NCBI GenBank assembly: GCA_963746775.1
Contig: CAVVCK010000002.1
Coordinates: forward strand, 75,571 to 139,570
Direction: 5' to 3'
Length of the DNA stretch: 64,000 nt
Origin: an uncultured bacterium
GTDB lineage: Bacteria; Patescibacteriota; JABMPQ01; CAVVCK01
The first letter of the stretch is position 1; each line of letters begins with the position of its first letter. This document shows positions 6,064 through 48,842 of the stretch, one piece after another. The notes beneath the pieces are model-generated. The model did no database searches, had not been told where the DNA came from, and worked only from the letters and a program-made list of their open reading frames with translations. A program made the translations under genes and the position numbers.

Positions 6064-7005
6064 TTATTTATTCTCAATTATTTCTTTAATATTATAACTC
6101 TTTCTTTTGCTATTATAATAAGTTTTAACAGCGATGTCAGCGAGTAGTCCCGATATAAATAACTGCAAACCGGCTAATATCATAAAAACTGAAATAATAG
6201 GCCAGATTCTATTACTTAGAGTAAAATATTCCAAAAATCTACCAATTAATAAAAATACTAATATAAAAGATCCTGCACCACCTATTAGAATACCCAATCC
6301 TCCAAACAAATGCAGAGGTCGAGAAGAATATTTTCTCCAAAACCATACTGACCAAGCATCAATGAATCCTTTGACAATTCTTTTCCAATTATATTTGCTC
6401 TGACCATATTTTCTTTCCTCATGTCTTACTTTTACTTCGGTTATTTTAAATCCTTGCCAGCGTAGGATGGCTGGTATAAATCTATGCATTTCACCATAAA
6501 GATCTAAATCTTCAAAACATTCTCGCCTATAAACTTTTAGAGTACAACCAGAATCGTGAATATTATCTTTTATTAAAAAGCTACGTAAATATTCTGCTCC
6601 TTTGGAAAATAATTTCTTTGAAAATGGATCTTTCCTTGGAAATCGCCATCCAGAAACTACATCATAACCTTCTTCTAGTTTTTCTATCAATTTTGGAATT
6701 TCTGCTGGAGGATTTTGGCCATCTCCATCTAAAGTTATAATTATTTCCCCCCTACTTGCTTTAATTCCAGCATCCAAAGCAGCAGTCTGACCAAAGTTTT
6801 TACGAAATCTAATAATTTTTAGAGGAGTTAAACTTTTTATAATTTCAAAAGATTTATCTGTGCTGCCGTCATCGATGAAGATTATTTCATAAGAACTATC
6901 TATTGATTCTATTACTTTTACAATATCCTGATGTACTTCTCCAATAATCTCAGACTCATTAAAAATAGGAACTATAATTGAATATTTTAAATTATTTGAT
7001 GTCAT
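6064..7005 (-). CDS. GT2 polyprenyl-phosphate glycosyltransferase (GtrB/ArnC-like) with C-terminal TM helices
   Basis: [11 protein letters not shown]...[11 protein letters not shown]...[11 protein letters not shown]; two C-terminal hydrophobic helices. Confidence 0.75.
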
Positions 7006-7239
7006 TAGTTGTGCATTGTAAATGTTTGAATAATATTTTTATTATATTACCAATATAGAAATTCATGCCAGATAATTAATATCTATCTGTCTATTAATAA
7101 CTATGCTTATATATCCAAATTATTTATAAATCTACCTTAAATAATAACAAACTAAAAAATAGCTGTCTATCCTATTGTTTTTTATTGTACTTATGATAAA
7201 TTATTAATAATTATTATTTAAAATTTACGAAAAAATAAA

Positions 7240-8265
7240 ATGAAAAAGGCATTAATTACTGGCATAACCGGCCAGGATGGTTCTTATTTAGCTGAATTCT
7301 TGTTAAGAAAGAAATATAAAGTTTATGGTTTAGTCAGGCGTTCTAGTACAGAAAAATTTGATCGCATAGCTCATATAATTGATAAAATTGAACTTATCCA
7401 AGGTGATCTTACCGATCAAAGTTCTCTTATTTCTGCCTTACAAATTTCTAAACCAGACGAAGTCTACAACTTAGCTGCTCAGTCATTTGTTCCAACATCA
7501 TGGAATCAATCTATTTTGACTGGCAATATTACCGCCCTAGGAGTTACAAGAATACTTGAAGCTATAAGGACTGTTAATCCTAAAATAAGATTCTATCAGG
7601 CTTCTAGTTCAGAAATGTATGGTAAGGTCAGAGAAACTCCACAGAATGAAGATACTCCTTTTTATCCCCGCTCTCCCTATGGTGTATCTAAGGTTTATGG
7701 TCATTATATTACTGTTAATTTCAGAGAGAGTTATAATATGTTTGCCGTATCAGGTATATTATTTAATCACGAATCTCCACGTCGAGGCTTAGAATTCGTA
7801 ACGCGTAAAATTACTGACGGGGTAGCTAAAATTAAACTTGGCCTAGCTTCTGATTTGCAAATGGGTAATTTAGAAGCTAAAAGAGATTGGGGGTTCGCAG
7901 GTGATTATGTTCAATTAATGTGGAAAATGCTGCAACAGAAAAAACCAGAAGATTATGTTATCGGTACAGGAAAAACTCATTCTGTAAGAGAATTTATAGA
8001 AATTGCTTTTGATTATGTCGGTTTAGACTACAAGAAATATGTTAAAGTGAATAAAAAATTTGTCCGCCCTGCAGAAGTTGATTTATTAGTTGCTGATCCT
8101 AGTAAAGCTCATAAAAAACTTGGATTTAAGCCAAAGGTATCTTTTGAAATGTTAATCAAAATGATGGTAAAAGCAGATTTGGAAAGATTATCAAATGAGT
8201 CAAAATATCAATTAGTTAGCGGGAAAAAGGGTAAAAAATATCATAATACTGTAGGAAATATGTAA
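7240..8265 (+). CDS. gmd: GDP-mannose 4,6-dehydratase
   Basis: MKKALITGITGQDGSYLAEFLL...GLVRRSS...SEMYG...NHESPRRG, a canonical Gmd sequence. Confidence 0.9.
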   Translation: MKKALITGITGQDGSYLAEFLLRKKYKVYGLVRRSSTEKFDRIAHIIDKIELIQGDLTDQSSLISALQISKPDEVYNLAAQSFVPTSWNQSILTGNITALGVTRILEAIRTVNPKIRFYQASSSEMYGKVRETPQNEDTPFYPRSPYGVSKVYGHYITVNFRESYNMFAVSGILFNHESPRRGLEFVTRKITDGVAKIKLGLASDLQMGNLEAKRDWGFAGDYVQLMWKMLQQKKPEDYVIGTGKTHSVREFIEIAFDYVGLDYKKYVKVNKKFVRPAEVDLLVADPSKAHKKLGFKPKVSFEMLIKMMVKADLERLSNESKYQLVSGKKGKKYHNTVGNM

Positions 8266-8632: not shown

Positions 8633-9553
8633 ATGTTTAAAAATGCTCTAATAACCGGCATTTCCGGCTTTGTCGGACCATATCTAGCCCAAGAACTCAT
8701 TAAACATGGATATGAAGTTTTTGGTTTGGATCGCGCTGGAAATAATCAGCTAGATTCAAGATTCCAAATACAAGATTCTCATATTTTAAAATGTGATTTA
8801 TTGGATAAAAATGATATTCTTAAAACAATAAATAAAATCAAACCAAAATATATTTTCCATCTAGCTGGTTTTAGTTCTGTTAGAGATAGTTGGAATAAGC
8901 CTGAATTATGCCGTAAAATTAATGTGGAAGGTACTAAAAATTTATTAGATAGTATTATTGAAGCTAAGCTAAACCCAAGAATTTTAATAGTTACTTCGGC
9001 TGAAGTTTATGGAAAGCCAAAAGAATTACCTCTAAAAGAAACTTCTCCCCTCTTCCCTGAGAGTCCTTATGCTAAATCAAGAGTAGAACAAGAAAAATTA
9101 CTCAAAAATTATAAAAATCTTGATTGGATTGTTTCCCGAAGTTTTAATCATACTGGTCCAGAACAACAACCTATTTTCGTTATCCCTGAATTTGCCCAGC
9201 AATTAATTAATATTAAAAATAATAAAATTGAACCAAAAATTATGGTGGGAAATTTAGAAGCAAAAAGAGATTTTAGTGATGTTAGGGATGTAGTTAGAGC
9301 TTATCGCCTACTTTTGGAAAAAGGTAAAATGCATGAAATTTATAATGTTTGTTCTGGTAAATCTTATATGATTAAAAATTTATTGAATAAAATGATTAAA
9401 ATAATTGGCAAGAAGGTTGATGTTGAAATTGATAAAAATAAGTTTAGGCCGGTGGATATTGAGGAATTAAGAGGAGATAATAGTAAGATTAGAGAGTTGG
9501 GATTTGAGAATAGATTTGGGATTGAAGAGACACTAGAAGATATGATGAAATAA
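8633..9553 (+). CDS. rmd: GDP-4-dehydro-6-deoxy-D-mannose reductase (GDP-D-rhamnose synthase)
   Basis: ITGISGFVGPYL...SPYAKSRVEQE...SRSFNHTGPEQQPIFVIPEF...VGNLEAKRDFSDVRDVVRAYRLLLEKG, parallel to Pseudomonas Rmd; located immediately after gmd. Confidence 0.7.
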   Translation: MFKNALITGISGFVGPYLAQELIKHGYEVFGLDRAGNNQLDSRFQIQDSHILKCDLLDKNDILKTINKIKPKYIFHLAGFSSVRDSWNKPELCRKINVEGTKNLLDSIIEAKLNPRILIVTSAEVYGKPKELPLKETSPLFPESPYAKSRVEQEKLLKNYKNLDWIVSRSFNHTGPEQQPIFVIPEFAQQLINIKNNKIEPKIMVGNLEAKRDFSDVRDVVRAYRLLLEKGKMHEIYNVCSGKSYMIKNLLNKMIKIIGKKVDVEIDKNKFRPVDIEELRGDNSKIRELGFENRFGIEETLEDMMK

Positions 9554-12346: not shown

Positions 12347-13921
12347 TTATTTTTTTAAATATACAGCATGCAAGCTATTATTTGTAATAATATTAATATA
12401 TTCAGATTCTAATGTTCCACTCTGGCTAAAAAATACTTCTGATTGGTTTTTATTAAGAACCAATATTATATCTGGCTTTCCGTTCATATTTTCTATGGTT
12501 TTGTCTTTAAACTTATTTTTCCATTTTTTTTCTAATCTTCTTTCATACTCTTTAGTATATTCTCTTTCTATTAGATAACCATATAAATTATTAACCCCCT
12601 CAATAGTTAAATATGTTATTGATGAAGAAATAACTTCAGACTTCTCTAATGGATCAAAGACAAAAAGTATTTTTGAATCTGATTTGGTGTTTTTTGTAAC
12701 AGTTGACAATAATTCATTAGTTTCTTTTCCTTCCTTGGCAAAGTTAGTAGCTTCTACCTTCACTGTCCAAAAAGATAAGGTAATAAAAATAAAAATAACT
12801 AAATAAACTAATCTTCTGCAAAATATTTTTTTAGTATTTTTTACAATAATAATAGCTAAAACAGATAATCCTAAAATACTTGGTAATAAATAACGCTCAG
12901 CCATCCCTGACTTTGAGTATAAGAATATATTAGGTAAAACAATCATTATAGAAAAAGAAAGGTAAAGTAAAAGATATTTTATTGATTGAATAAACTTCTT
13001 TTTTCTTTCATTTTTTATAAACAAGAAGGACATTCCATGTATTACTATTAAAATCAGTAATAATATTAACCAGCCTAATAAAGAATTTTTATTTAGTATA
13101 ATATTTTTTATTCCTTTAAGATATCCGTAGACAGATAAACCTGTCCCGGCATATCCGATTTTATCTGTTCCTACTACATATTTAATAAACCATAATTCAA
13201 ATAACATTATTATCATTGGTAATGCTAATAGCAAATTATTTTCAATGCTTTTCTTCATTGGAATATTAAATGTATTTTTTTCATTCCAAATTTTAAATAA
13301 TACAAAAGCTGGAATTATAATAACAAAACTTTCTTTACTTAAAGAAGCTAAAATTAAAAAAATAATAAATAGTATTGTATTCAATAAATATCTCTTCTTT
13401 TTAATGCACTTTGTCATAAAATAAAAACTAAATCCAAGAAATACCATGCCTATTGTTTCATTTGGCCCAAGCCGCCACCATATAGCCATTTGTGATCCTA
13501 TAAATGTTAAAAATATAAAAATTAACGATAGAAATACAGAAAGATTTAATTTTCTAGCACCTATGTAAAAAAGAGAAAAGGTCAAGGCTGCCAAAATTCC
13601 AGTATAAAATGAAAGAATAAAAAAATTAATTCCTAATAGTTTTATTTCTAAAACTCGATGTAAAAAATATATCGGCCTAAAACGAATATTAAAATCATTA
13701 CCGATCCATTCAGTTGACACATCTATAAAGGAATTACTTTCTAAATCAGAATGAATTTTTAACATTTCATGATCATCTATAAAATGATAACCTGAATTAA
13801 GCGTTCCAGTAAGAAATAAAAATAATAAAATACCAACAAAAAATAAAGTCACTATAGAATAATCAAAATATTTAGTACCTTTAAATTTTGAAACATACTT
13901 TATTATATTTCCTAGACTCAT
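12347..13921 (-). CDS. GT-C membrane glycosyltransferase (ArnT/PMT, GT39/GT83-like)
   Basis: 524 aa; about 11 TM helices then a soluble C-terminal domain. Sits downstream of a GT2 gene and a small flippase gene, an Arn-operon-like order. Confidence 0.6.
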   Translation of the reverse strand: MSLGNIIKYVSKFKGTKYFDYSIVTLFFVGILLFLFLTGTLNSGYHFIDDHEMLKIHSDLESNSFIDVSTEWIGNDFNIRFRPIYFLHRVLEIKLLGINFFILSFYTGILAALTFSLFYIGARKLNLSVFLSLIFIFLTFIGSQMAIWWRLGPNETIGMVFLGFSFYFMTKCIKKKRYLLNTILFIIFLILASLSKESFVIIIPAFVLFKIWNEKNTFNIPMKKSIENNLLLALPMIIMLFELWFIKYVVGTDKIGYAGTGLSVYGYLKGIKNIILNKNSLLGWLILLLILIVIHGMSFLFIKNERKKKFIQSIKYLLLYLSFSIMIVLPNIFLYSKSGMAERYLLPSILGLSVLAIIIVKNTKKIFCRRLVYLVIFIFITLSFWTVKVEATNFAKEGKETNELLSTVTKNTKSDSKILFVFDPLEKSEVISSSITYLTIEGVNNLYGYLIEREYTKEYERRLEKKWKNKFKDKTIENMNGKPDIILVLNKNQSEVFFSQSGTLESEYINIITNNSLHAVYLKK

Positions 13922-14247
13922 TTGATAATTAAAATTATTGATATAGCTCCTATTAGAATTCCCAAGAATTGTTTTAAAGCTATCTCCTCCTTAAATAAAA
14001 ATATTCCAGCAAAAACAACCCCCAGCATTGTACCGATTGTCATAATGGGACTAATTTTACTAAGATTAAATATTTTTAAAATATAGGCATAAATCCCGAA
14101 AGAAAATAAATAAAACAATCCACCAAAAATAAAATAAACAAAAAAATTAAATTCTTTCAAAAAAGTAAAATCACTGGATTTTTTTAACATAATCTGAGCT
14201 AGGGCACTAAACAAAATACCAAATATTATTAGTAAAATTTTAATCAT
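13918..14247 (-). CDS. Small DMT/EamA-type 4-TM membrane protein (ArnE/ArnF-like lipid-sugar flippase subunit)
   Basis: 109 aa, four hydrophobic helices, FSALAQIMLKK N-terminal motif; 4-bp overlap with both neighbours. Confidence 0.5.
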   Translation of the reverse strand: MIKILLIIFGILFSALAQIMLKKSSDFTFLKEFNFFVYFIFGGLFYLFSFGIYAYILKIFNLSKISPIMTIGTMLGVVFAGIFLFKEEIALKQFLGILIGAISIILIIK

Positions 14248-15172
14248 TGTTTTTCTCTTTAATTATATAGTTAGGTCTTTTTTTTGATTCCATAAATAAT
14301 TTCCCAATATATTCTCCTAAAATACCAATCATAATCATTTGAATGCCACCAATAAACAATATGCCAACAAGTACAGACGCCCACCCTGACAATGCTCTAT
14401 CCGTGAATAATTTTATAATAATTGCATATACCCCATATATAAATGCTACAGCAGCCATTATATAACCAAATATAGTAGAAATACGTAGTGGTTTTATACT
14501 AAAACTAGTAATGCCATCAATAGCAAATTTCATCATTTTTTTTAGAGTATATTTTGTCTTTCCATGGTACCTTTCGTCTGGCATATATTCGATTCCATAT
14601 TGTCTAAATCCAAGCCAAGAAATCATCCCTCTTAAAAAAAGATTACTTTCTTCAAAAGTTTTTATTATTTCCACTACTCTTCTATCTAACAAACGAAAAT
14701 CTGCAATACCTTTTTTAATTTTAACATCTGAAAAGTTATTCATAATATTATAAAAAATATTTGCTGTTTTTCTTTTAAAGAATGACAATCTCTGATTATC
14801 TTGACGAATTGTATATACTATATCATTACCTTCCTGCCATTTTCCAATTAATTTTGGAATAATATTTGGTGGATGCTGAAGATCACCATCCATAGAAATT
14901 ACACAATCACCAGTTGCAAAGTCTAAGCCAGCTCGTAAAGCATTTTGGTGACCAAAATTACGAGAAAATGATAAATAGTAAATTTTATTATTTTGTTTTC
15001 TTAATTTTTTTATAATTTTTAATGTATTATCAGTGCTTCCATCATCAATAAACAACAACTCATAATCAAAGTGATTTTCCAAAATATCTGTTATTTTTTT
15101 AACTAATATTTCTATATTTCCTTCTTCATTAAAGACTGGAATAATTACTGATGTTTTAAAATTATTATTCAT
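14240..15172 (-). CDS. GT2 polyprenyl-phosphate glycosyltransferase (ArnC/GtrB-like)
   Basis: VIIPVFNEEGNI...[11 protein letters not shown]...ISMDGDLQHPP; two C-terminal TM helices. Confidence 0.75.
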   Translation of the reverse strand: MNNNFKTSVIIPVFNEEGNIEILVKKITDILENHFDYELLFIDDGSTDNTLKIIKKLRKQNNKIYYLSFSRNFGHQNALRAGLDFATGDCVISMDGDLQHPPNIIPKLIGKWQEGNDIVYTIRQDNQRLSFFKRKTANIFYNIMNNFSDVKIKKGIADFRLLDRRVVEIIKTFEESNLFLRGMISWLGFRQYGIEYMPDERYHGKTKYTLKKMMKFAIDGITSFSIKPLRISTIFGYIMAAVAFIYGVYAIIIKLFTDRALSGWASVLVGILFIGGIQMIMIGILGEYIGKLFMESKKRPNYIIKEKNND

Positions 15173-15183: not shown

Positions 15184-16641
15184 TTATTTTAACTTATATA
15201 CTTGAAATTGTTTATTTTCAAAAACCATTTTATTATTTTGCTTTAAGTAATTTTGAGTATTTTCTTTGTCTATATTTTTTGTAAAAACAAAATAATTAAT
15301 TTCTGACTCTTTCAAAAATTTAACGGAGTCTATTTTCACAGATTTTCTTTCCGTAAATAAATACATTACCCTAGGTTTAAAAAATACTATTGTCTCTTCT
15401 TCTGGAATATTATTTTTTACATACTTAAACAATTCTATTGAATTGTTAGCATAAGGGCCATTTAGTGAATTATTTACCTTGAAAATGGTTAAATTTTGAA
15501 TTGAAAAAAATATTAATAAGAAAATACCTAGAGTATAAATAATTTTTTTCGAACTAAGCCTAACAATATTTTTAAAGTCAATAATTTGTAATCCTAGTAT
15601 AACAAAAAATAAATAGAAAGGAATAAGTGTTATAATAAATCTTAGCCCTTGTTGGTAAGGATAAATAAGAAACAATCCAAAAGTTAATATAGAAAATAAC
15701 GTATAAAGATAATATTTCTTAAAATCTTTTAAAAAACCTAACACGAAAAAGAAAATGCTAGTGTTATAAATAGCATTAAAAAGATATGTTTTATGAATTC
15801 CTAAAAAATTAGGTAAATAATTTTTATTTCCAAAAAATTTAGCAAATACATCTAAATAATAATAAAAATTATAGGCTACTTGATTTAGAAAATTATTCGG
15901 GAGCAGAGAATGATTGGCCGCATACGAGCCTGATGGCAATATTACTAATACCAATAAATAAGTTATCAGAGATATTAAATATGGCAAACTTTCATCAATT
16001 ATATTAGAAAATCTATGAAACCATTTTTTATATTCAATTAATTGAACTAAGGGTAATAATATAAAGATAATTATAGAATTAGTTCTTATAAAAACACTCA
16101 TAAACATACTAAATCCTAAAATAATTAAACATATTCTTTTTGCCTTTAGTCTTTTTTTTTCACAATAAATCTTCTGAATTAAAAAAACAGACAATAGTAA
16201 AAAAAACATAGCTGGTATATCTGAAAGAACATTTTGCTTAAATAAAAAAAAGAAAGGAGAAGTAGCTATAAGTAAAATTAAAATTAACGATAAATGTTTA
16301 TCTAACTTAGCTTTAAATAAATAATATAAAATAATTAAAGAGCTGATAAAAAAAATATAAGTGACAATTTTCAATATTAATATATTAGCACCAAATAATA
16401 TTATTACTGGAGTTAAAATCAAGGGATAACCCCAAGGATATAGATCTGGTCCAACTTGCTTTTCAGAAAAAGAAACTCTAAAATCTGAGGCATTCACTAG
16501 ATTGTTTATTTTGTTTTCCACTAAAGCCCTTGATTGTCCAATATAGCCGCTAAAATCTCCTCCCCAATTATGTTCTTTATTTAAAGTAGCAATGTTAATA
16601 AAAATTATGATAATAATAAGAGATAATAAAACTTTTTTCAT
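15184..16641 (-). CDS. Polytopic membrane protein, GT-C-like glycosyltransferase
   Basis: 485 aa, N-terminal signal/TM, many TM helices, soluble C-terminal domain; the genomic context is glycan biosynthesis. Confidence 0.5.
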   Translation of the reverse strand: MKKVLLSLIIIIIFINIATLNKEHNWGGDFSGYIGQSRALVENKINNLVNASDFRVSFSEKQVGPDLYPWGYPLILTPVIILFGANILILKIVTYIFFISSLIILYYLFKAKLDKHLSLILILLIATSPFFFLFKQNVLSDIPAMFFLLLSVFLIQKIYCEKKRLKAKRICLIILGFSMFMSVFIRTNSIIIFILLPLVQLIEYKKWFHRFSNIIDESLPYLISLITYLLVLVILPSGSYAANHSLLPNNFLNQVAYNFYYYLDVFAKFFGNKNYLPNFLGIHKTYLFNAIYNTSIFFFVLGFLKDFKKYYLYTLFSILTFGLFLIYPYQQGLRFIITLIPFYLFFVILGLQIIDFKNIVRLSSKKIIYTLGIFLLIFFSIQNLTIFKVNNSLNGPYANNSIELFKYVKNNIPEEETIVFFKPRVMYLFTERKSVKIDSVKFLKESEINYFVFTKNIDKENTQNYLKQNNKMVFENKQFQVYKLK

Positions 16642-16709: not shown

Positions 16710-17354
16710 CTAAAATTTATATTTAAATAATTCTATATCATCATTAAATAAATTTTTTACTATATTTCTTGTTTCGCTAGTATAATATTCTTTATAATTT
16801 TTATGAGTTGAAATGTTTGTTTTTTTTAATACAGCCTTTACTTTGATTTTATCACAAACTTTTTGAAAATCTTTTTCTAAATTTTCAAATCTACCTACAA
16901 AATCAATAATATTTTTATTTTGATCATCAAAAATATAATTTTTTTGTTGACTAACACGTTTAGTTTTTCCAATTATATATACATAATCTCTAAAAGTATT
17001 TTTTTTATTAATTTTAAGGATTTTTTGAAGATCTTTTCTTTTCTGAATTATATAAAAATAGTGAGAAACAATTTTATCCCAAGGGTTCCTTATGAAAGTA
17101 AATTTATAGTAATCTTCCCATATATTTTTATCAATTTTCTTCTTTATTTGTAACGCCGTAAGGTGTTGGAGACAAATCAATCTCTTTTTTTCTTGCAAAT
17201 TTAAACCATCTTTAATACTGTATCTGTTGCCATTTGAATCTTCAAAACCAAATAAATCATTGTTCCTGTTTAAATCCAAACAATCCTCAACACTATCTCC
17301 TCCGGTTTTTGGAATATGGATAAATATAAATTTTTGCTTATGTGATATAGGCAT
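16710..17354 (-). CDS. Sulfotransferase (Sulfotransfer_2-like)
   Basis: 5'-PSB-like FIHIPKTGGDS and 3'-PB-like FIRNPWDKIVSHY motifs. Confidence 0.7.
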   Translation of the reverse strand: MPISHKQKFIFIHIPKTGGDSVEDCLDLNRNNDLFGFEDSNGNRYSIKDGLNLQEKKRLICLQHLTALQIKKKIDKNIWEDYYKFTFIRNPWDKIVSHYFYIIQKRKDLQKILKINKKNTFRDYVYIIGKTKRVSQQKNYIFDDQNKNIIDFVGRFENLEKDFQKVCDKIKVKAVLKKTNISTHKNYKEYYTSETRNIVKNLFNDDIELFKYKF

Positions 17355-17428
17355 CTTAGAAAATTTTAATAATTATTTCAGTAAAAGTTCATTTCTCTGT
17401 AGTCAAAAATTATGCGCAATATCTAATT

Positions 17429-18367
17429 TTAAAATAAATTACTACTATCCAAATTAAAATACTCTTTAGCAACCAATCTATTTGATTCTCTGTATTTATT
17501 AGTAATATAATTAAATAGTTCTTTATTCATTTTAAGTTTTTTATTTTTAAAATATTTTTTATTTATGTTATTTATTTTTTCAATTGAAGAAGAACCGTGC
17601 CATGTTTTTGCTTCATGTTTTATAAGGTAGTGTATTTTATTAATTATTCTTAAAACTCTCAACGTATTAACATTTAATGATATATTTTTATTTTCAATGT
17701 CCCTTAGATTGTTATACTCAATAGGGAAAATAGAAATGAAATCATCTATTAAATTATTATCTTTAAAATTATTTTTATTGAACACCCTAACGATAATATT
17801 CTCTTTTTTAAAAACGGAGCTCCAAAAATTTAATAATTGATAATAATCAAAGTTACTATAATTAATACTTCTTATCCAATCAGAAAATTTCTCAGAACAA
17901 CCACTTTTAACAGCAGTAGAATACAAGCTTGTGAAAAATAAATCCTGTCTTCTTAAATAAATTATTATTTTTATATCACCAGAAATTAAATGTAACAATT
18001 CATATAATTTATTAATTTCTTCTGAATTTCTTATTCTACTACTTAAAAGTTCGCTACTTAGAATAATCGAATAAGATTTTATCATTTTTTTACATTTTCT
18101 AACAAAAATCTGAGGAAATTCTTTTTGAAATTTATTATATTCATTCATATTCATTTGTTTCATTCTTCTTATGTCTACAGAATGTTTAGGATTAGAAGAA
18201 TACATGGATAAATCAAAACAATAAATTCCAAGAAATTTTGGATAAATATAGCCCTGTTTTAATATTTTATTCCTATTTTGCCATAAAAAATTTTGAATTG
18301 TAGTTGTACCTGTCTTTTCTGTACCAATGTGTAGGTATATAGTTTTATTTTCTTTTTTTCTTTTCAT
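17429..18367 (-). CDS. Sulfotransferase-domain protein
   Basis: HIGTEKTGTTT (PAPS 5'-phosphosulfate-binding P-loop-like) and YLRRQDLFFTSLY (R-x-x-D-x-x-x-S-x-Y 3'-PB-like). Confidence 0.55.
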   Translation of the reverse strand: MKRKKENKTIYLHIGTEKTGTTTIQNFLWQNRNKILKQGYIYPKFLGIYCFDLSMYSSNPKHSVDIRRMKQMNMNEYNKFQKEFPQIFVRKCKKMIKSYSIILSSELLSSRIRNSEEINKLYELLHLISGDIKIIIYLRRQDLFFTSLYSTAVKSGCSEKFSDWIRSINYSNFDYYQLLNFWSSVFKKENIIVRVFNKNNFKDNNLIDDFISIFPIEYNNLRDIENKNISLNVNTLRVLRIINKIHYLIKHEAKTWHGSSSIEKINNINKKYFKNKKLKMNKELFNYITNKYRESNRLVAKEYFNLDSSNLF

Positions 18368-18722
18368 ATTAAAAAATCTTTGAATTATTATTTTTGTTAA
18401 AAAGCCGCTTCCAAATTTTTATTAAACAAAAATACTCTTGCACTTACAATAAAGTAATTTATTTGTTATTGATGTAATAATATTATGTATCGCTATAAAA
18501 ACATTTTTATTTTTTCCTTATTTTCTTTAATGGTGCAAGAGTACCTCTACCATACTTAATATAATTCCAAGTTCGTTTAATTGTTTTTTTTAAACCTTCA
18601 TTTTGTAAATTTGATAAAGCTGAATCAGTAAGATACCTTAGTTTAAATTTGTATATAAATTTATTTACTATCATAATTTCAAATTTTAATTAATTTTATC
18701 ACAAGTAAATTTTTTATTACTA

Positions 18723-19268
18723 TTATTGAATGTCAGTATCAAAGAAAGGAAAATACCTTGATTTATATCGTAAATTTTTATTTCGTGTTTTTATTACTTT
18801 AGCCGGATTGCCAACAGCTATATTATAGGCAGGAATATCTTTTGTGACAACTGCTCCTGCACCAATCACTGCTCCCTCTCCTATAACCACCCCTGGAAGA
18901 ATAATCACTCTTGTTCCAATCCATGCGTTATCTCTAATAATAACCGGTTTTACTAAACAAGCAAAGTCTGGATTCTGTGGATCATGAGTTAAGGTTTGAA
19001 TTAATGTTTGATGAGAAATATTAACATTATTTCCAATTTTAACACCAGCACGTCCATCTAAATATGTCTGTCTATTAACTACGGTATTATTACCAATCTC
19101 TATCTTAGATCCAGTTACAAAACAATTCATATGTATACTAGAATTTTTACCAATTTTTAAATGACAAAAATGTCTTAGAAACCAATGTCGTAAAGTATAA
19201 GATGGTATTTTAGCAAATAAATGATTTGCCAAGTAAAAGCATAGGGCAAAAATTATTTTAATCAACAT
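18723..19268 (-). CDS. Hexapeptide-repeat O-acetyltransferase (WcaF/maltose acetyltransferase-like)
   Basis: Left-handed beta-helix repeats IGNNVNISHQ...IGTRVIILPGVVIGEGAVIGAGAVV. Confidence 0.8.
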   Translation of the reverse strand: MLIKIIFALCFYLANHLFAKIPSYTLRHWFLRHFCHLKIGKNSSIHMNCFVTGSKIEIGNNTVVNRQTYLDGRAGVKIGNNVNISHQTLIQTLTHDPQNPDFACLVKPVIIRDNAWIGTRVIILPGVVIGEGAVIGAGAVVTKDIPAYNIAVGNPAKVIKTRNKNLRYKSRYFPFFDTDIQ

Positions 19269-20505: not shown

Positions 20506-21428
20506 TATTTTAGCATAGCTATTAATAATAATTTTGTTTCATCTTGCATAATTAAATCATAAAATTTATTTCTATCTTTAATATTAATATAAAGCATTAT
20601 ACATAAGATAATAATATTTGATAAATTTTTATTTTTTAAAAATAATTTTAGATATTCTATATTTTCAGGTAATAATTTTTTGATTAAATTAATATTATCT
20701 TCGACAACTGAAACGGCTGTTACTGCAGCCACTTCAATTTGCACTTTCGTAACAGTTTCTTTAATTGTATTTGATGAATGAATTCTATATTGAATATGAA
20801 CATGATTATCATAATAATACTCTGCTTGTCGCAAAGATGTAATTATAAAATCTAAATCATGACAATAACGCAATGGTTGAAATCCACCCACAGATTCCCA
20901 TAATTTCTTTGTAAAAAATAAGTTCGAAGTTGTTGTTATAAAATTTTCATTTAAAATTGATAATTGTAGGTAATTTGTTTTTTTAAAATAATCTAGCGCT
21001 CTTTTACGCCACTCCTTCTCCACTCCCGAGGTTATTATAGAACCTTTATCATTAATAAATTCTATTTCGCCAAAAATTAATTCAATCTTTGGATTATTTT
21101 GAATAATATCAACACATCTTCTAATTTTATCCTCTTTATAAATATCATCAGAATTTAGAACACTAATATATTCACCTGTTGCTAAGCTAATACATCTATT
21201 AATAGTATTATGAGCACCGGCATTTTCTTGTGAATAAAATTTAATATTTGAATATTTTTCTGCAAAATCCTTACAAATATCAGCAGAATTATCTTCTGAT
21301 CCATCATCAATTATTATTAATTCTATATTCTTATATGTTTGATTCAATACACTTTTAATTGTTCTCTTTATATATTTTTCATGGTTATAAGAAGGAATAA
21401 CCATGCTTACCTTCTTCATGTTTTTCAT
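20505..21428 (-). CDS. GT2 glycosyltransferase
   Basis: VSMVIPSYNHEKYIKRTIKSVLNQTY...IIIDDGSEDNS. Confidence 0.75.
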   Translation of the reverse strand: MKNMKKVSMVIPSYNHEKYIKRTIKSVLNQTYKNIELIIIDDGSEDNSADICKDFAEKYSNIKFYSQENAGAHNTINRCISLATGEYISVLNSDDIYKEDKIRRCVDIIQNNPKIELIFGEIEFINDKGSIITSGVEKEWRKRALDYFKKTNYLQLSILNENFITTTSNLFFTKKLWESVGGFQPLRYCHDLDFIITSLRQAEYYYDNHVHIQYRIHSSNTIKETVTKVQIEVAAVTAVSVVEDNINLIKKLLPENIEYLKLFLKNKNLSNIIILCIMLYINIKDRNKFYDLIMQDETKLLLIAMLK

Positions 21429-24373
21429 TATTTTAATAATTCTTTTAATACTTTTTTGGCATTTTCAGTTGAAAATTCTTTTTGTACGTGCTTTACAGAT
21501 TCTTTAGATATCTTCTCCCATAATAACTTATCATGATATAGGTTTACTACTTTTTTAGCAAAAACTTTTTTATCATCTGCCAAACAAGCGTTACGACCAT
21601 CAATTAATCCTATCCCCTCGGCTCCAATACTTGTAGTTACTACTGGAACCCCGAAACTCATTGCTTTAGCAATTTTACCTTTAAATCCTGCTCCAAATCT
21701 AAGAGGTGCAATAAAAACTTTTGATTCGGAAAACAACTCCGGAAGTTTGTTTTCTTCAACAAAACCCGTAATTTTAAATTGTCTTTCATTTAATTTTTCT
21801 ATTTCTTTTGGTACATTACTTCCCACAATAACAACTTTAAAATTTTTAATTTTATTTTTTAAAACCGGGAAAATTTCATCGTGAAACCAAATAACAGCAT
21901 CAATATTTGGTGCATGTGAAAACCCTCCTAAAAATATAATATTTTTTCTCTGTTGATATTTATCAAGAATATTATTTTCCATAACTGGCTGTATCCATGG
22001 CAAAGTAGCAGTTTTAATATTAGAATCTATTTTATCAATTATTTTTATTTCTTCTTTACTATAAAATAAGGAAATATCCGCTTTTCTCATTATTGAAAAT
22101 TCTTTTTTTTGCATAGTTTGATCTTTTTTTTCAAGATTTTTATTCATTATCTCTGACATTCTTTGTTCCCTTAAAAAATGTAGATCAACTCCGATATAAA
22201 GTATTTTTGTATTAGAATATTTTTTGATTATATTAAAAAATTCATTAGCTATAAGTGGTCTAGAAAGAAATGTATAATTAATATATTCTCCATTTATTTT
22301 TATAAAATTTAGAAAGGCTGAAGGACCATAAATAACTTTAATTCCTAAATTTGTTAATATTGTATTATATGGTTCTAGATGATTTTCATTATAAGAACAA
22401 AAAATAACATTATAACCAAGCTTTACTAAAATTAATAAATATTTATAGGCAATATATGACCCTGCATCTTTATCATAAGTAGGAAGAGTAAGGTCTATAA
22501 AAAGTATATTTTTTTTATCTTTTGAAATTATATTATTATAACTATGTTTATTTTTCTTATATTTAAAAAATATTAGAGGTAATTTAATAAATTTAAATAG
22601 AAATTTTGGAATAAATTTTTTAATCTGTTTCTTATAAATTTTATAAAAATAATTTGGTATTTTCCAACGTAATGTATTTTTTAAAGTGTATATTTCTTGA
22701 TTAAGATTTTTTATATACTCATCTCTATTCTTTATTTCATTCTCTCTATTCTTTATTTCGTTATCTTTTTGTTCAATTTTAATATTTTTACATTTTATTA
22801 AATCCTCATTATTATTTATCTTATTATTTTTAATACTTTCATAAATATAGTAATAATGCATTTGCAGTTCCTCTTGCATCTTAATTAATTTCTTGCAGAC
22901 ATCATTCTTGCTTTTAAATAATACTCCTAATCCAAAAGAATGGTGAAACTCTATAGTCTGATATTCTTGTTTTAATTCCTCCCAAAGTTTACATACTCCG
23001 AAACCTGACTCTCCAACCTTAATATCATGAAAAAGAATAATTCCGCTATCCTTTATTTTAATAAGCCAATTTTCAAAATCATGCTTTACCGCTTCATAGG
23101 TATGCAAACCATCAATATGAAGAATATCAATTGATTTATCTTTAAATTCAGAAATGGCATTATCAAAAGTTTTTTTAATCAGTTTAATTTCCACACCTGA
23201 ATATAATTTATTGACTACTTTTTGTACAAATTTATAAATATCATCTCCATAAAAACCCGCATGCTTATCGCCTTCCCATGTATCAATAGCATTAATTTCT
23301 GTCTTAATACCCTCATCTTTTACGGCTTGACAAAAAGAAAAAAACGATGTTCCTTTATGAGTTCCTAATTCAACAATTTTTTTTGGTTTAATATTTCTAA
23401 TTAAATCATACGAAAATAATTTATGACCAGCCCATGGCCAACTAATGTCTTGAAATTCTTTTTCGTATTCAAATACAGGAACAAAATATTTCCAATCTTT
23501 ATTTTTTGATTTATTAATAAAATTTTGAAAATCAAAAGATTCTATAATACCAATTCGCTGCATTTCCATTGCCTTTTCTTTAGATATTAATAATTTACTA
23601 TACTCTTCATCTAACTTTCCTAATTTATAAGCATCAAACCAACGACGAATGTGCCAATTTATATCTTTGCTAAAAGAATTATTTCTTTCCATAGCTCTAC
23701 CGTAATTAATAACTTTTCTATAAAATTCTTTTTTTTCTCTTAATGGAAAATGAAAAATATTAATATTTTCAGATTTTCTAGTATTGATTACTTTTTTTTT
23801 ATTAATAATAGAATGATTACCCATCGAGACCTTAAGTAGTCCTTCTCCTGTTTTAAAAATAACCTTAGGGGGATACCTAAAAAAATATAAATTTTCCTTT
23901 TTTGAATCTTCTTGGAAATTTTCAGTTTCTATTGGATGAACTACCGCATATTTTGCATTTTCTGGAAACGATTCCTTGCCACCTTTATTCTCAAGTAATA
24001 TATTAATTAAATTAACCTTCAAAACATCAGCAGATGAATTCCATATTTCAGCTTTCAAGTCCCCACTTTTAGGAAACCAAAATTCATCCGCATCGCAATG
24101 AAAAACGATATCAGCTTTATAATTATCAATCGCAATTCTAGCCATTTTATTATTCCACTTTGATTGAGATATGTCTCTACCTGGCTCATCTATCAAATAA
24201 AGCTTTCCTTGATTTTGGTATTTAACAAAGACATTTCTTGTATTATCGCTAGAAGCATTATCAGTAGCTATAATAAAATCAACTCCATGATTAAGATGAA
24301 ATTCTATATTTTTTTCTATAATATCACCCTCATCCCTAGCAAGGATGGTCATTATTAGCTTCGGATCTTTCAT
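21428..24373 (-). CDS. 981-aa multidomain enzyme: N-terminal GT2-like domain, CmcI/TylF-like class I methyltransferase, coiled coil, C-terminal GT4
   Basis: N-terminus TILARDEGDIIEKNIEFHLNHGVDFIIATDNASSDNT; middle IVELGTHKGTSFFSFCQA...DTWEGD...DGLHTYEAV; coiled coil with KNRENEIKNRDE repeat; C-terminus ...FKGKIAKAMSFGVPVVTTSIGAEG. Confidence 0.7.
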   Translation of the reverse strand: MKDPKLIMTILARDEGDIIEKNIEFHLNHGVDFIIATDNASSDNTRNVFVKYQNQGKLYLIDEPGRDISQSKWNNKMARIAIDNYKADIVFHCDADEFWFPKSGDLKAEIWNSSADVLKVNLINILLENKGGKESFPENAKYAVVHPIETENFQEDSKKENLYFFRYPPKVIFKTGEGLLKVSMGNHSIINKKKVINTRKSENINIFHFPLREKKEFYRKVINYGRAMERNNSFSKDINWHIRRWFDAYKLGKLDEEYSKLLISKEKAMEMQRIGIIESFDFQNFINKSKNKDWKYFVPVFEYEKEFQDISWPWAGHKLFSYDLIRNIKPKKIVELGTHKGTSFFSFCQAVKDEGIKTEINAIDTWEGDKHAGFYGDDIYKFVQKVVNKLYSGVEIKLIKKTFDNAISEFKDKSIDILHIDGLHTYEAVKHDFENWLIKIKDSGIILFHDIKVGESGFGVCKLWEELKQEYQTIEFHHSFGLGVLFKSKNDVCKKLIKMQEELQMHYYYIYESIKNNKINNNEDLIKCKNIKIEQKDNEIKNRENEIKNRDEYIKNLNQEIYTLKNTLRWKIPNYFYKIYKKQIKKFIPKFLFKFIKLPLIFFKYKKNKHSYNNIISKDKKNILFIDLTLPTYDKDAGSYIAYKYLLILVKLGYNVIFCSYNENHLEPYNTILTNLGIKVIYGPSAFLNFIKINGEYINYTFLSRPLIANEFFNIIKKYSNTKILYIGVDLHFLREQRMSEIMNKNLEKKDQTMQKKEFSIMRKADISLFYSKEEIKIIDKIDSNIKTATLPWIQPVMENNILDKYQQRKNIIFLGGFSHAPNIDAVIWFHDEIFPVLKNKIKNFKVVIVGSNVPKEIEKLNERQFKITGFVEENKLPELFSESKVFIAPLRFGAGFKGKIAKAMSFGVPVVTTSIGAEGIGLIDGRNACLADDKKVFAKKVVNLYHDKLLWEKISKESVKHVQKEFSTENAKKVLKELLK

Positions 24374-28080: not shown

Positions 28081-30591
28081 TTAATTTATTTTTTCTTTTT
28101 GTACTGCAAAAGATAAGTATTTTACTAAAAACTTCTTTGGATTATGAATTGCCCAATTAATTTTTTCAAAATATTTCTTAATAAACTTCTTCGGATTGTG
28201 CACCGCCCAATTTAATTTCCCCAAAAAAGTATTATTTAATTTATTAAAAGCTTCTAGGGTTTTATTCTGATTTGCTATTAAGTCATCTTTACTCTTTATT
28301 TTATTCTCTTTCCATTCTATTTGTTTATCTTTATCTATAATATTATCTATAATATTTAATTGAAGATTACGTATTTGAATAATCAATTGTTTTTTTGAGG
28401 CATGTCTTTCATCACTAACAAAATTAATGCTCGATTTATTATTTCTGTATGCATTATTTGTTAAAGCTTTAATCTTAAAATTATTTTTCCATAATACATA
28501 AACTAAACTTAATTGGTCTCTATATGAATAATTTTTAATCCAATACCACCAATCACTCATAATTTTTATTATTTTTTTGTTGTTATGTTTTCTGTATACA
28601 ATATTAGTTTCAAAAAAAGTTCCAAAGCTTCCAGAAAAACCAGAATTTTTAATAATTGATTTTTGTTTTTCAATAGTTTTAATATTATCTTTTTTTAAAA
28701 ATTCACAAGCATCAAATTCATCATATATATTATGTCTTTCTGGATGAGGACCAATAGACATTAATTGTCTAGCAATATCGGCTCTCTTAATATCTTGAAA
28801 AATTCTATTATTTAATATATCAATATTAGCATCAACATATAAACTTTCATTATATTCTGGGAAAAGAATATGGGGATGTAATTTGTGCCAGCGGCTATTA
28901 CGCACATCATTTAATTTGTCAAATTTTAATGATCTAAATTTCCAAATAAATTTGTTTTTATCTTTGGGAATATTGTCTGTAAAACAAACATAATTCCAGT
29001 CATCATTAATATATTTGTGATTTATAATTTCATCATAATTACCCGTAACACAAGTATACACTACTTTAGTTTTTTTCTTTTTAATTTTCTGTATCCTGTG
29101 TTTAATTTTATTAGTGGATACAATTGTTAGTTCGTTTTTGCTATCAACTTTAAGACTGGGATAAACTAGTTTAAGTTTTTTGCTAATTTTACTATTATCT
29201 TCTATAAAATATATAAAATTTTTAGACAAGTGGGGTAATATACTTTTCATGGTATTTAAAATACTTTCATCAGAATGAAAACCATCATCAATAACAATAT
29301 CTATTTTATCTCCTTTAAGAATTTTTTCTAAATAATTTTTATTATCAACAGATTGATCAAATTCATAAAGTTCTGGTTGGTTTTTCAAAAAAGCACTAAG
29401 TTTTTTTAAATTTTTTATGTTGTTTTTGATATGATTCAAATCTTTATCAAGACAAATAATTCTTCCCTTTTCAAAAAGATCACACCAAACAGCCAGACCA
29501 CTTCCTTTCAAAATCCCTGTTTCCACAAAAACAGGTAGCTTTTTTGCCTTGATGATTGGCGAAAGATACTCCGCATACTTTTCTGCGTATCCATGATAAA
29601 GCATTCTATCTCCTCCTGTATTTATCTCTTCTCTTGTTCTTGTGTCAAAAGGAGAAACTTTGTTTCTTGGAACATTAGTAGCAATTCCTCCATACCTTAT
29701 TTCCTTTTCGATAAGCCATTTTTGTAAGTTTAACTGGTCTTTAGTCAACTTTTTTGGTAACTTTATCATTTCTCCAAATTCATAATCCCATTCAACTGGT
29801 TTAAAAGGATCTAATCCGGCACCTGGATAAAATGTCATTTCTCCAAAATAAGTTTTTCCTTTAGTTGAGTATAAATCTACTCTAACAAAAGGAAATTTTG
29901 ATGATAATTTTTTTGCAACAACTAACATTTCGTTTAAATTCGGTGGTTTTGGTATGTTAAAAGAATCATCCTTAGGATAAGCAAATTTTTCTATGTTTAA
30001 GTAATTCCAATTCAAGTCATAAAAATTTCTCCTATGGTTTGTAAATCTACCCACATCAACGCCAATGCATATAGGTTTTCCAGAAAAACAAAATATTTTA
30101 TAATCAAGAAGATTATCACCTAAATATTCTTCACAAATTATTTTTGGTTTAATGTTTTTGTAGCCCCATTCATATGAAAAATAATAATGATTAGAACTTG
30201 ATTTAATCCATTCTTTTAATTTATTTTTAACATCTTTTTCATTTAGCTTCAGTTTGTTTTTGCAAATAATATTTTGTCCACTACCATGATTTATCTTTAA
30301 AATAAATTTATTTGGTAGTTTATTAAAATTTATTTTATTCTCATTATTGTAAACACCTAATAGATTTGTTAAATATTTCTTTCCGATTATTTTTTTTACG
30401 TAATCTCTCACCTTATATTTATCAGCACATAATGTTAATAATGGATTTTTGTAATATAATTTTAGCCACTGCAATTTTTCATTAAAAGTTGTTGGGTTAT
30501 CTATATCTGGATTGTAACCAAAACTATTGATAAATTGTTTTTGAATATGTTCTTTAGTAAGAAATATATTATTGCTTATATTATTTTGCAT
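28081..30591 (-). CDS. 836-aa multidomain protein: TupA-like ATP-grasp domain, CmcI-like methyltransferase domain, DUF616-like putative glycosyltransferase domain, coiled coil, doubled C-terminal tail motif
   Basis: NPDIDNPTTFNEKLQWLKLYYKNPLLTLCADKYKVRDYV (TupA-like); VETGILKGSGLAVWCDLF...IDDGFHSD; KVVYTCVTGNYDEI...VCFTDN (DUF616-like); C-terminus GKLNWAVHNPKKFIKKYFEKINWAIHNPKKFLVKYL. Confidence 0.65.
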   Translation of the reverse strand: MQNNISNNIFLTKEHIQKQFINSFGYNPDIDNPTTFNEKLQWLKLYYKNPLLTLCADKYKVRDYVKKIIGKKYLTNLLGVYNNENKINFNKLPNKFILKINHGSGQNIICKNKLKLNEKDVKNKLKEWIKSSSNHYYFSYEWGYKNIKPKIICEEYLGDNLLDYKIFCFSGKPICIGVDVGRFTNHRRNFYDLNWNYLNIEKFAYPKDDSFNIPKPPNLNEMLVVAKKLSSKFPFVRVDLYSTKGKTYFGEMTFYPGAGLDPFKPVEWDYEFGEMIKLPKKLTKDQLNLQKWLIEKEIRYGGIATNVPRNKVSPFDTRTREEINTGGDRMLYHGYAEKYAEYLSPIIKAKKLPVFVETGILKGSGLAVWCDLFEKGRIICLDKDLNHIKNNIKNLKKLSAFLKNQPELYEFDQSVDNKNYLEKILKGDKIDIVIDDGFHSDESILNTMKSILPHLSKNFIYFIEDNSKISKKLKLVYPSLKVDSKNELTIVSTNKIKHRIQKIKKKKTKVVYTCVTGNYDEIINHKYINDDWNYVCFTDNIPKDKNKFIWKFRSLKFDKLNDVRNSRWHKLHPHILFPEYNESLYVDANIDILNNRIFQDIKRADIARQLMSIGPHPERHNIYDEFDACEFLKKDNIKTIEKQKSIIKNSGFSGSFGTFFETNIVYRKHNNKKIIKIMSDWWYWIKNYSYRDQLSLVYVLWKNNFKIKALTNNAYRNNKSSINFVSDERHASKKQLIIQIRNLQLNIIDNIIDKDKQIEWKENKIKSKDDLIANQNKTLEAFNKLNNTFLGKLNWAVHNPKKFIKKYFEKINWAIHNPKKFLVKYLSFAVQKEKIN

Positions 30592-33223: not shown

Positions 33224-33568
33224 CTATAGATAACCTCTAATACACCGTTCTATATTTTCTAAAACATCTAAATTATTAAATCTTAATACCTTTAAATTTA
33301 AGGTTCTTTTTAGGAAATATTCTCTTTCTTTGTCTTTAACTATATTTTCTTCTTCATAATGCTGGCTGCCATCTACTTCTATTACTAATCTTTTGGTAGG
33401 ACAGTAGAAATCTACTACATATCTATCTAAAGGTTTTTGTCTATAGAATTGGACATTATTGATTTGTTTTCTTCTAATTCTAGCCCATAGTATTATTTCA
33501 GCTTCAGTCATAGTTTTTCTTAGCTTTCTGGCTATAGGCTTTATATACGGCTGATAATATTTTCTCAT
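33224..33568 (-). CDS. DUF559 endonuclease-domain protein (Vsr/restriction-endonuclease-like fold)
   Basis: 114 aa: TEAEIILWARIRRKQINNVQFYRQKPLDRYVVDFYCPTKRLVIEVDGSQH, typical DUF559. Flanked by GC-rich hairpins in AT-rich intergenic DNA. Confidence 0.75.
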   Translation of the reverse strand: MRKYYQPYIKPIARKLRKTMTEAEIILWARIRRKQINNVQFYRQKPLDRYVVDFYCPTKRLVIEVDGSQHYEEENIVKDKEREYFLKRTLNLKVLRFNNLDVLENIERCIRGYL

Positions 33569-38312: not shown

Positions 38313-38331
38313 TACTAGTTATAAATACATT

Positions 38332-44054: not shown

Positions 44055-44065
44055 AAAAATATAAT

Positions 44066-48838: not shown

Positions 48839-48842
48839 ACAA

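Follow-up and report, generated by a model that had tools for sequence, protein, structure and literature searches.

Does a bacterium of the Candidate Phyla Radiation (CPR) build a sulfated glycan on its surface? The question is raised by two adjacent genes, here called ST-A and ST-B, on contig CAVVCK010000002.1 of an uncultured member of the Patescibacteriota (assembly GCA_963746775.1). The 64,000-nucleotide stretch that we analyzed, positions 75,571 to 139,570 of that contig, is referred to as the window, and coordinates given without a locus name are positions in it. The initial annotation of this DNA read the pair as sulfotransferase genes that lie side by side within a glycan locus and point to a sulfated glycan, and our results support that central claim. 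We consider it likely that ST-A and ST-B are soluble, cytoplasmic O-sulfotransferases that depend on 3'-phosphoadenosine 5'-phosphosulfate (PAPS) and serve a surface-glycan operon with a Wzm/Wzt exporter in a CPR bacterium. The organism thus probably makes a sulfated surface sugar polymer, a plausible trait for which other bacteria offer precedents. The two genes are as follows.

16710 to 17354, minus strand: ST-A, 214 amino acids (aa), soluble PAPS-type sulfotransferase, Pfam Sulfotransfer_2, intact open reading frame (ORF)
17429 to 18367, minus strand: ST-B, 312 aa, predicted soluble and divergent sulfotransferase, related to Sulfotransfer_1/3, no Pfam match of its own, intact ORF

Identity of ST-A and ST-B

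The two ORFs span exactly positions 16710 to 18367, as first annotated, and both are intact on the minus strand. They are separated by 74 nucleotides, and neither protein contains a transmembrane (TM)-like segment. The motifs that had been quoted for the 5'-phosphosulfate-binding loop (5'-PSB) and the 3'-phosphate-binding element (3'-PB) are present: K16TGG and R89NPWDKIVS97HY in ST-A, and K18TGTT and R139RQDLFFTS147LY in ST-B. They go beyond chance resemblance, as their key residues are near-invariant in 120 homologues of each protein. The expectation that both proteins would match sulfotransferase profiles was borne out for ST-A, which scores above the Sulfotransfer_2 cutoff, and failed for ST-B when its own sequence was used.

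ST-A matches PF03567 (Sulfotransfer_2) with 56.2 bits against a gathering score of 22 (E = 7.4e-15) over model positions 5 to 252 of 252. It has more than 400 homologues, and PF03567 was found in all 120 of those among the matches listed. In these 120 proteins, the residues of the 5'-PSB (H13-I-P-K16-T-G-G19-D-S21) are strongly conserved: position 16 is lysine in 105 and arginine in 12 (117 with either residue), G19 is present in 115, and S21 is present in 116. The 3'-PB (R89-N-P-W-D-K-I-V-S97, an R-x7-S motif) has R89, P91, and S97 in 120 of 120 each, and a comparison of the family profile with PDB sequences aligned it to RNPRDVLVS of SULT2A8. Two further residues, H64 and E157, are conserved in 118 and 119 of the 120 homologues, respectively. 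The catalytic base in HS2ST-type enzymes is a histidine, and H64 is a candidate for this role in ST-A.

Structural comparison gave the same picture. An AlphaFold2 model of ST-A built from 38 sequences had a mean predicted local distance difference test score (pLDDT) of 94.5, and all of the top 50 Foldseek matches in the PDB were sulfotransferases that bind PAPS or 3'-phosphoadenosine 5'-phosphate (PAP), including cytosolic SULTs, retinol dehydratase, HS6ST, and 3rnl. A phmmer search of PDB sequences with ST-A alone returned nothing useful, and a profile was needed; the family profile matched only sulfotransferases plus one marginal unrelated protein, with the alignments falling on the RNPxDxxVS 3'-PB element. 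The Sulfotransfer_2 match, the conservation of the motifs, the model with its Foldseek matches, and the profile matches therefore establish beyond reasonable doubt that ST-A is a sulfotransferase, an ordinary bacterial Sulfotransfer_2 enzyme.

For ST-B, too, a profile was needed, as phmmer with the single sequence found no match among PDB sequences. Among 34 aligned homologues, 14 match Sulfotransfer_1 and 14 match Sulfotransfer_3 (best E = 1.9e-6), and a few homologues carry the NCBI/UniRef name "sulfotransferase domain-containing protein." The ST-B-type domain of one relative, P0367, exceeds the Sulfotransfer_4 threshold (33.9 bits versus 22.8). The best PDB match of the ST-B family profile was the sulfotransferase 3rnl, aligned at the 3'-PB region, and 3rnl was also the top Foldseek match in the PDB (E = 3.3e-4, probability 1.0) of an AlphaFold2 model with a pLDDT of 92.2 and a predicted TM-score (pTM) of 0.90; CurM-ST, NDST1, TPST2, retinol dehydratase, and SULTs appeared further down the list. 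When the ST-B family was aligned by hhalign with a Sulfotransfer_1 protein from L002, a related CPR locus described below (positions 6646 to 7383), the match extended over 153 columns and both PAPS motifs (82.6% probability, E = 9.7e-6), with GTEKTGTT in the same columns as GAQRSGTT and YLRRQD....S in the same columns as ILRDPIQRALS.

The residues that would contact PAPS are strongly conserved in the ST-B family. In its 5'-PSB (K18-T19-G20-T21-T22), K18 and T19 are present in 120 of 120 homologues and G20 in 118; in its 3'-PB (R139-x7-S147), which aligns with the 3'-PB of 3rnl, of ST-A, and of the L002 Sulfotransfer_1 protein, R139 is present in 120 and S147 in 118. E106 is invariant (120 of 120) and is a better candidate for the ST-B base than position 107. 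Thus, five independent lines point to a place for ST-B within the sulfotransferase superfamily: the Pfam matches of its family, the profile search, the predicted structure and its Foldseek matches, the hhalign result, and the conservation of the motifs. ST-A and ST-B belong to different subfamilies and are not recent duplicates, because hhalign of the two families pairs just the 3'-PB segment, with a probability of 6.9%.

An exhaustive search with the ST-B profile recovered 6,588 clusters (at 50% identity) at E <= 1e-30 and 20,748 at E <= 1e-10, and 475 ST-B-family loci are found in the species-representative genomes of GTDB. At the level of genes, the statement in the initial annotation that carbohydrate sulfation is uncommon in bacteria was therefore too strong. 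The ST-B clade is very large, mostly unannotated, and largely missed by standard Pfam models, which supports the point that profile bias hides bacterial polysaccharide sulfotransferases (PMC11625862). Some members are fused to Sulfotransfer_1/3/4 domains or to polysaccharide pyruvyl transferase. Five giant relatives (P0361, P0363, P0366, P0367, and P0401) are 1,100 to 1,700 aa long and contain three to five tandem ST-B-type domains. One locus, L062 of Fredinandcohnia humi (L062:14053-20452), has rmlB- and rmlD-like genes followed by a sat-permease-cysC-cysQ cassette, and about 5 kb from the cassette lies an ST-B homologue (37% identity, a 485-aa ORF). F. humi is a cultivable member of the Bacillaceae and would allow experiments on the ST-B family.

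The glycan operon and its relatives in other Patescibacteria

Pfam and NCBIfam scans placed ST-A and ST-B inside a co-directional minus-strand glycan operon of about 25 kb that lies between about 34.8 and 9.9 kb of the window. Read in the direction of transcription, it starts with a family 4 glycosyltransferase (GT4), a DUF559 protein, a GT2, Wzm, Wzt, a TupA-ATP-grasp/methyltransferase/TOD1 protein, a methyltransferase, and a GT8-methyltransferase. It continues with a 981-aa GT2/methyltransferase/GT1 protein, a GT2, a GT4, a WcaF-like acetyltransferase, ST-B, ST-A, and a GT-C protein (PMT_2), and it ends with an ArnC/PgfS-like GT2, a small EamA protein, a 524-aa protein with nine TM segments, a methyltransferase, a GtrA protein, and a PRK07208-type FAD oxidoreductase. 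Just past its end, on the opposite strand, are gmd and a gene for a Gmd-like short-chain dehydrogenase/reductase (SDR). The features on which the argument draws are as follows.

31316 to 32080, minus strand: Wzm ABC-2 permease, glycan export (Pfam ABC2_membrane)
30581 to 31315, minus strand: Wzt/TagH-like ABC transporter ATPase, glycan export, 244 aa (Pfam ABC_tran; NCBIfam similarity to TagH and galactan Wzt)
21428 to 24373, minus strand: 981-aa GT2/Methyltransf_24/GT1 protein, likely chain builder (Pfam; synteny)
18723 to 19268, minus strand: WcaF-like hexapeptide O-acetyltransferase, directly upstream of ST-B (Pfam Hexapep; similarity to the NCBIfam WcaF family)
15184 to 16641, minus strand: GT-C (PMT_2, ArnT-like) membrane glycosyltransferase, directly downstream of ST-A (Pfam PMT_2/PMT; nine TM-like segments)
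14240 to 15172, minus strand: ArnC/PgfS-like polyprenyl-phosphate sugar synthase, a GT2 with two C-terminal TM segments (Pfam Glycos_transf_2)
13918 to 14247, minus strand: EamA protein, ArnE/F-like candidate flippase for a lipid-linked sugar (Pfam EamA; four TM-like segments)
8633 to 9553, plus strand: Gmd-family SDR adjoining gmd, plausible rmd (GDP-4-keto-6-deoxymannose reductase) (Pfam GDP_Man_Dehyd, 6e-70; under all NCBIfam equivalog cutoffs)
7240 to 8265, plus strand: GDP-mannose 4,6-dehydratase (gmd), supply of a GDP-6-deoxyhexose precursor (TIGR01472 equivalog, 442.6 bits versus 415)

The GC content at third codon positions is 0.16 to 0.17 in both ST-A and ST-B, the same as in their operon neighbors, and recent horizontal acquisition of the pair is disfavored on this ground. 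No terminator-like site was found between 15 and 20 kb of the window. A promoter scan was uninformative at a GC content of 22 to 25% (42 sites versus 43.7 expected). The gap of 355 nucleotides between the acetyltransferase gene and ST-B (18368 to 18722), in which a 55-aa ORF without family evidence was called in the Logan contig, may hold an internal promoter.

The methyl and acetyl decorations that had been predicted for the polymer are supported by several methyltransferase domains and by the WcaF-like acetyltransferase. Its proposed sugars, D-rhamnose, xylose, and galactofuranose, fared less evenly. The gmd assignment stands at equivalog level, and rmd is plausible for the adjoining SDR, which might then lead to D-rhamnose or another GDP-6-deoxyhexose. 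The label UXS was unconfirmed for the gene at 5120 to 6052, an SDR without family assignment, and the Glf-like gene scored 68.8 bits against the 303.75 set for UDP-galactopyranose mutase, with 670 bits as a PRK07208-type FAD oxidoreductase. In the NCBIfam scan, the ArnC/PgfS-like GT2 reached 310 bits for PgfS and 179 bits for ArnC, each under the cutoff.

Three other genes of the operon deserve mention. The 524-aa protein at 12347 to 13921 (minus strand), which lies between the EamA gene and a methyltransferase gene, has about nine TM-like segments and no Pfam or NCBIfam match; it may be an unrecognized GT-C or a polymer-modifying membrane enzyme. Directly downstream of Wzt, at 28081 to 30591 (minus strand), is an 836-aa fusion of a TupA-like ATP-grasp domain, Methyltransf_24, and a TOD1/MUCI70 glycosyltransferase-like domain, with no NCBIfam match. 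At the head of the operon, a DUF559 (endonuclease-like) gene at 33224 to 33568 (minus strand) sits between the first GT4 and GT2 genes.

The window has a GC content of about 25%, and the nearest named relatives of its arginyl-tRNA synthetase all belong to Parcubacteria, Patescibacteria, Pacebacteria, or Moranbacteria (55 to 66% identity), which marks the organism as a CPR bacterium. ST-A and ST-B are found on a 547,535-bp contig and also in a Logan assembly of run ERR11571143. The closest named homologue of ST-A, P0125 (51% identity), is labeled Candidatus Peregrinibacteria bacterium at NCBI. We compared the window with the P0125 locus (L002) and with two loci, L088 and L090, from a second metagenome-assembled genome (GCA_964473745.1). 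L002 encodes, in order, a fusion of CysN and adenosine 5'-phosphosulfate (APS) kinase, a Wzt with a Wzt_C domain, Wzm, a 747-aa protein, a hexapeptide acetyltransferase, a GT2, a Sulfotransfer_1 protein, a 117-aa protein, an EamA protein, a DegT aminotransferase, an Inositol_P (CysQ-like) protein, a Sulfotransfer_2 protein, and a 1010-aa GT2/GT1 protein. L088 has a minimal set of genes (Wzm, Wzt, Sulfotransfer_1, Sulfotransfer_2, and a 1004-aa GT), and in L090 two Sulfotransfer_2 genes directly adjoin genes for CysN-APS kinase and CysD, with a CysQ-like gene as well.

These uncharacterized Peregrinibacteria-type loci share with the window ST-A, Wzt, Wzm, a GT2/GT1 protein of about 1,000 aa, an acetyltransferase, and a module of ArnC-like GT2 and EamA. 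By BLASTP, ST-A is 47 to 50% identical to its counterparts in the three loci. The window Wzt and Wzm are 50 to 51% and 38 to 40% identical, respectively, to those of L002 and L088, and the 981-aa GT is 36 to 38% identical over 374 aa to the GTs of about 1,000 aa in L088 and L002. The acetyltransferase, kept beside sulfotransferases in related CPR loci, is 42 to 45% identical to those of L090 and L002, and the ArnC-like GT2 is 30% identical to the GT2 of L002 and L090. The ST-A orthologue directly adjoins the large GT gene in both L002 and L088. Each of the three loci has at least two sulfotransferases, as the window has two; the second one is of the Sulfotransfer_1 type there and of the ST-B type in the window. 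Beside their sulfotransferases, L002 and L090 encode CysN fused to APS kinase and a phosphatase resembling CysQ, and L090 also has CysD, whereas the window has none of these. This conserved gene set, with PAPS-supply and PAP-removal genes close by in the relatives, is the strongest contextual evidence for a sulfated, ABC-exported glycan.

Two further features of the relatives are of note. The Wzt proteins of L002 (782 to 2005) and L088 (984 to 2171) are 395 to 407 aa long and carry a Wzt_C carbohydrate-binding domain, whereas the 244-aa window Wzt lacks Wzt_C. In O-antigen systems, Wzt_C recognizes the chain-terminating cap, and one idea is that sulfate might act as a terminal export signal in L002 and L088. 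In addition, L002:5724-9929 and L090:5134-13459 contain an Arn-like module (GT2, Sulfotransfer_1, a protein of about 117 aa, EamA, and DegT) in which start and stop codons overlap. Its composition suggests a sulfated amino sugar on polyprenyl phosphate, of which we know no description.

Elsewhere in the window, two paralogous genes at 34953 to 36167 and 36677 to 37897 (both minus strand) encode proteins that combine a Laminin_G_3 (ConA-like) domain with metal-binding motifs of the MopE type. Over 333 aa the two are 83% identical, with no difference in the first 180 or so aligned residues, and they lie in an island of 39 to 46% GC against a background of about 25%, adjoined by tRNA-Ser(cga) at 38331 to 38421; the island may be a recent duplication, foreign DNA, or both. 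A second glycan-related cluster, on the opposite strand to the operon (41935 to 52050, plus strand), encodes a Wzx-like Polysacc_synt flippase, an IS200-like Y1 transposase (43470 to 44054), a GT4, two Wzy_C/O-antigen-ligase-like proteins, two PMT_2 GT-C proteins, and a VTT/DedA protein.

Donor, acceptor, and rival explanations

In the mechanism that we propose, K16 of ST-A or K18 of ST-B in the 5'-PSB, together with R89 and S97 or R139 and S147 in the 3'-PB, would hold PAPS. A sugar hydroxyl would lose its proton to the candidate base (H64 in ST-A, E106 in ST-B) and attack the sulfuryl group, with release of PAP. The acceptor would most likely be an undecaprenyl-linked glycan, sulfated while the neighboring GTs build it up on the cytoplasmic face and before Wzm/Wzt exports it. 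The acetyltransferase and the methyltransferases would add the other decorations, and PAPS would be supplied by genes beyond the 64-kb window. A less likely acceptor is a polyprenyl-phosphate monosaccharide, which would be made by the ArnC-like GT2, flipped by EamA/GtrA, and transferred outside by the GT-C protein. For this second route, the Sulfotransfer_1 gene in L002 and L090 is translationally coupled inside such a module, beside the DegT aminotransferase gene. Sulfation of the polymer seems to us about two times as probable as the lipid-monosaccharide route; the direct adjacency of the ST-A orthologue to the large GT gene in L002 and L088 speaks for the polymer.

The observations that weigh against ST-A and ST-B being active sulfotransferases of a surface glycan concern the source of PAPS, the acceptor, and the identity of ST-B. 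We searched for PAPS genes in the window and about 11 kb of flanking sequence (Logan contigs of run ERR11571143 extended the left end by about 8 kb and the right end by about 3 kb). Six-frame phmmer searches with Sat, CysD, CysN-CysC, CysC, CysQ, and sulfate-permease queries gave no match at E <= 10; within the window, Pfam scans of the large ORFs agreed, as the initial annotation had noted. The lack of PAPS genes in the window and these flanks sets this locus apart from the related CPR loci and from the cluster of Vibrio sp. KMM 8419; such genes are present in L002, L090, and L062. CPR genomes are metabolically reduced. Sulfate-activation genes have been reported only sporadically in CPR bacteria, whose sulfur pathways have been described as fragmentary (PMC12153355). 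Co-located PAPS genes and sulfotransferases have been called a hallmark of sulfated-polysaccharide clusters (PMC11641403); the window has the sulfotransferases in a polysaccharide assembly and export cluster and lacks the PAPS genes in the same cluster.

These results raise the possibility that ST-A and ST-B are real sulfotransferase homologues that stand idle for want of PAPS, either as decaying relics or as enzymes that depend on scavenging PAPS or APS from a host cell. Related CPR loci, after all, hold PAPS genes right by their sulfotransferases, and in ST-B position 107, a histidine in 109 of 120 homologues, is leucine. Against this possibility, the two ORFs are intact and full length, have a composition like that of the operon, and conserve all of the PAPS-contacting motif residues. 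H107 is also absent from 11 of the 120 ST-B homologues, in all of which E106 is kept, and the search took in only about 75 kb of the 547,535-bp contig, so PAPS genes may lie elsewhere. We regard idle or scavenging enzymes as unlikely. A more specific suggestion, that the glycan is sulfated with PAPS or APS scavenged from the host cell after loss of the cysDNC and cysQ genes kept by related CPR loci, seems to us doubtful. If true, it would amount to a previously undescribed metabolic dependency for envelope building. The bundling of cysDNC and cysQ in the related CPR loci and not in the window raises a comparative question on where PAPS originates.

A second alternative is that the acceptor is no polysaccharide at all (a lipid, a small metabolite, a peptide, or a protein) and that the position in a glycan operon is incidental. 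Sulfotransferase families do span glycolipid, steroid, and peptide acceptors (PMC11625862), and the closest ST-B homologues, from cyanobacteria, are orphan genes in neighborhoods with no glycan context. Among 80 ST-B loci, Wzm or Wzt is nearby in only about 11 to 17, additional sulfotransferases are near a few, and APS kinase is near only 2, one of them that of F. humi; the ST-B family thus seems tied to glycan loci more loosely than that of ST-A. The window itself argues otherwise: the two genes lie between the acetyltransferase and GT genes and the GT-C/ArnC-like module, are co-directional with both, and are not set off from them by terminator-like sites. Further, synteny of ST-A orthologues with Wzm/Wzt and a large GT recurs in three independent CPR loci, in two of which the ST-A and GT genes directly adjoin, and ST-B-type domains occur fused to polysaccharide pyruvyl transferase. 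A nonglycan acceptor is accordingly improbable.

The third alternative concerns ST-B alone, which could be a P-loop kinase or phosphotransferase, acting for example on a glycan or sugar, that resembles sulfotransferases through a related fold. ST-B itself has no sulfotransferase match in Pfam or NCBIfam, and its family aligns only weakly with that of ST-A, as described above. P-loop proteins (PSTK, PezT, GPN-loop GTPases, gluconokinase, and APS kinase) are interleaved with sulfotransferases in its Foldseek list, at E values of about 5e-3 to 0.2 and with TM-scores similar to those of the sulfotransferases; the TM-scores in the list are modest (0.44 to 0.54). The Walker A motif is GxxxxGK[ST], whereas the 5'-PSB of sulfotransferases is K-x-G-[TS]-T. 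The ST-B loop, G15-T-E-K18-T-G20-T-T, has no lysine after its second glycine and fits the 5'-PSB and not Walker A, which speaks against a kinase, and this reading is very improbable given also the invariant R139-x7-S147 motif after the expected strand, the best PDB match to a sulfotransferase by both profile and structure, the hhalign match to the Sulfotransfer_1 protein, and the homologues that match Sulfotransfer_1/3/4, one of them above the gathering score.

Comparison with known systems

Attachment to host cells is presumed to be the way of life of CPR bacteria, and CPR surface chemistry therefore probably governs it. One concrete candidate for the CPR-host interface would be a polyanionic coat bearing sulfate, methyl, and acetyl groups. 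In the literature that we could search, we found no paper tying CPR, Patescibacteria, or Peregrinibacteria to sulfotransferases, PAPS synthesis, or sulfated glycans. ST-A is a new member of Sulfotransfer_2, and the ST-B clade is already sometimes labeled sulfotransferase in databases; less expected are the occurrence of the pair in a CPR bacterium and the lack of local PAPS genes. Biochemically proven sulfated bacterial glycans are few (PMC8205485, PMC11641403, PMC11625862). Sulfotransferases are found in bacterial polysaccharide clusters for synechan (PMC8205485) and for capsules of marine Vibrio and Cobetia (PMC11641403), and glycolipid sulfotransferases are known in rhizobia and mycobacteria (PMC11625862).

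The eukaryotic Sulfotransfer_2 enzymes (the CHST family, HS2ST, and HS6ST) belong to the same Pfam family as ST-A and have the same 5'-PSB and RNPxxRxxS-type 3'-PB. HS6ST and HS2ST were among the profile and structure matches of ST-A, with solved members matching weakly by profile (E = 0.2 to 0.7). The eukaryotic enzymes are Golgi type II membrane proteins of 300 to 450 aa with large acceptor-binding inserts, unlike ST-A, which is a minimal, soluble protein of 214 aa with no TM segment. The best profile and structural match of ST-B, 3rnl from Alicyclobacillus acidocaldarius, aligns with it over the strand-helix of the 3'-PB and the FG.E.v.V..FE segment that comes next, at about 12% identity (TM-scores of 0.44 and 0.54). 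ST-B differs from it in additional helical insertions and in a helical region at the C terminus. To our knowledge, no function has been established for the crystallized 3rnl protein.

NodH and Stf0 are PAPS-dependent O-sulfotransferases of glycolipids or lipo-oligosaccharides. Bacterial PAPS-dependent O-sulfotransferases that act on lipid-linked or lipo-oligosaccharide sugars are documented, with NodH placed in Sulfotransfer_3 (PMC11625862). By their descriptions, NodH, LpsS/KpsS, and Stf0 differ from ST-A and ST-B in subfamily, acceptor, and gene context.

The capsular polysaccharide cluster of Vibrio sp. KMM 8419 (PMC11641403) is closer in organization. As in the window, its sulfotransferases lie in an ABC-transporter-dependent locus with GTs, nucleotide-sugar genes, and an acyltransferase, and sulfation would in both cases be cytoplasmic, PAPS dependent, and completed before export. 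The Vibrio cluster holds cysC, cysN, and cysD, whereas the window holds none of them. KMM 8419 is a proteobacterium with a KpsMT transporter, and the window comes from a CPR bacterium known from genes alone, with a Wzm/Wzt-TagH-like exporter. The xss cluster for synechan in Synechocystis PCC 6803 (PMC8205485) belongs to another taxon again and relies on Wzx/Wzy polymerization, unlike the Wzm/Wzt system of the window. In gene content, rather than by sequence comparison, it is nonetheless like the window in combining two sulfotransferases of distinct subfamilies, XssA and XssE, with many GTs in one cluster.

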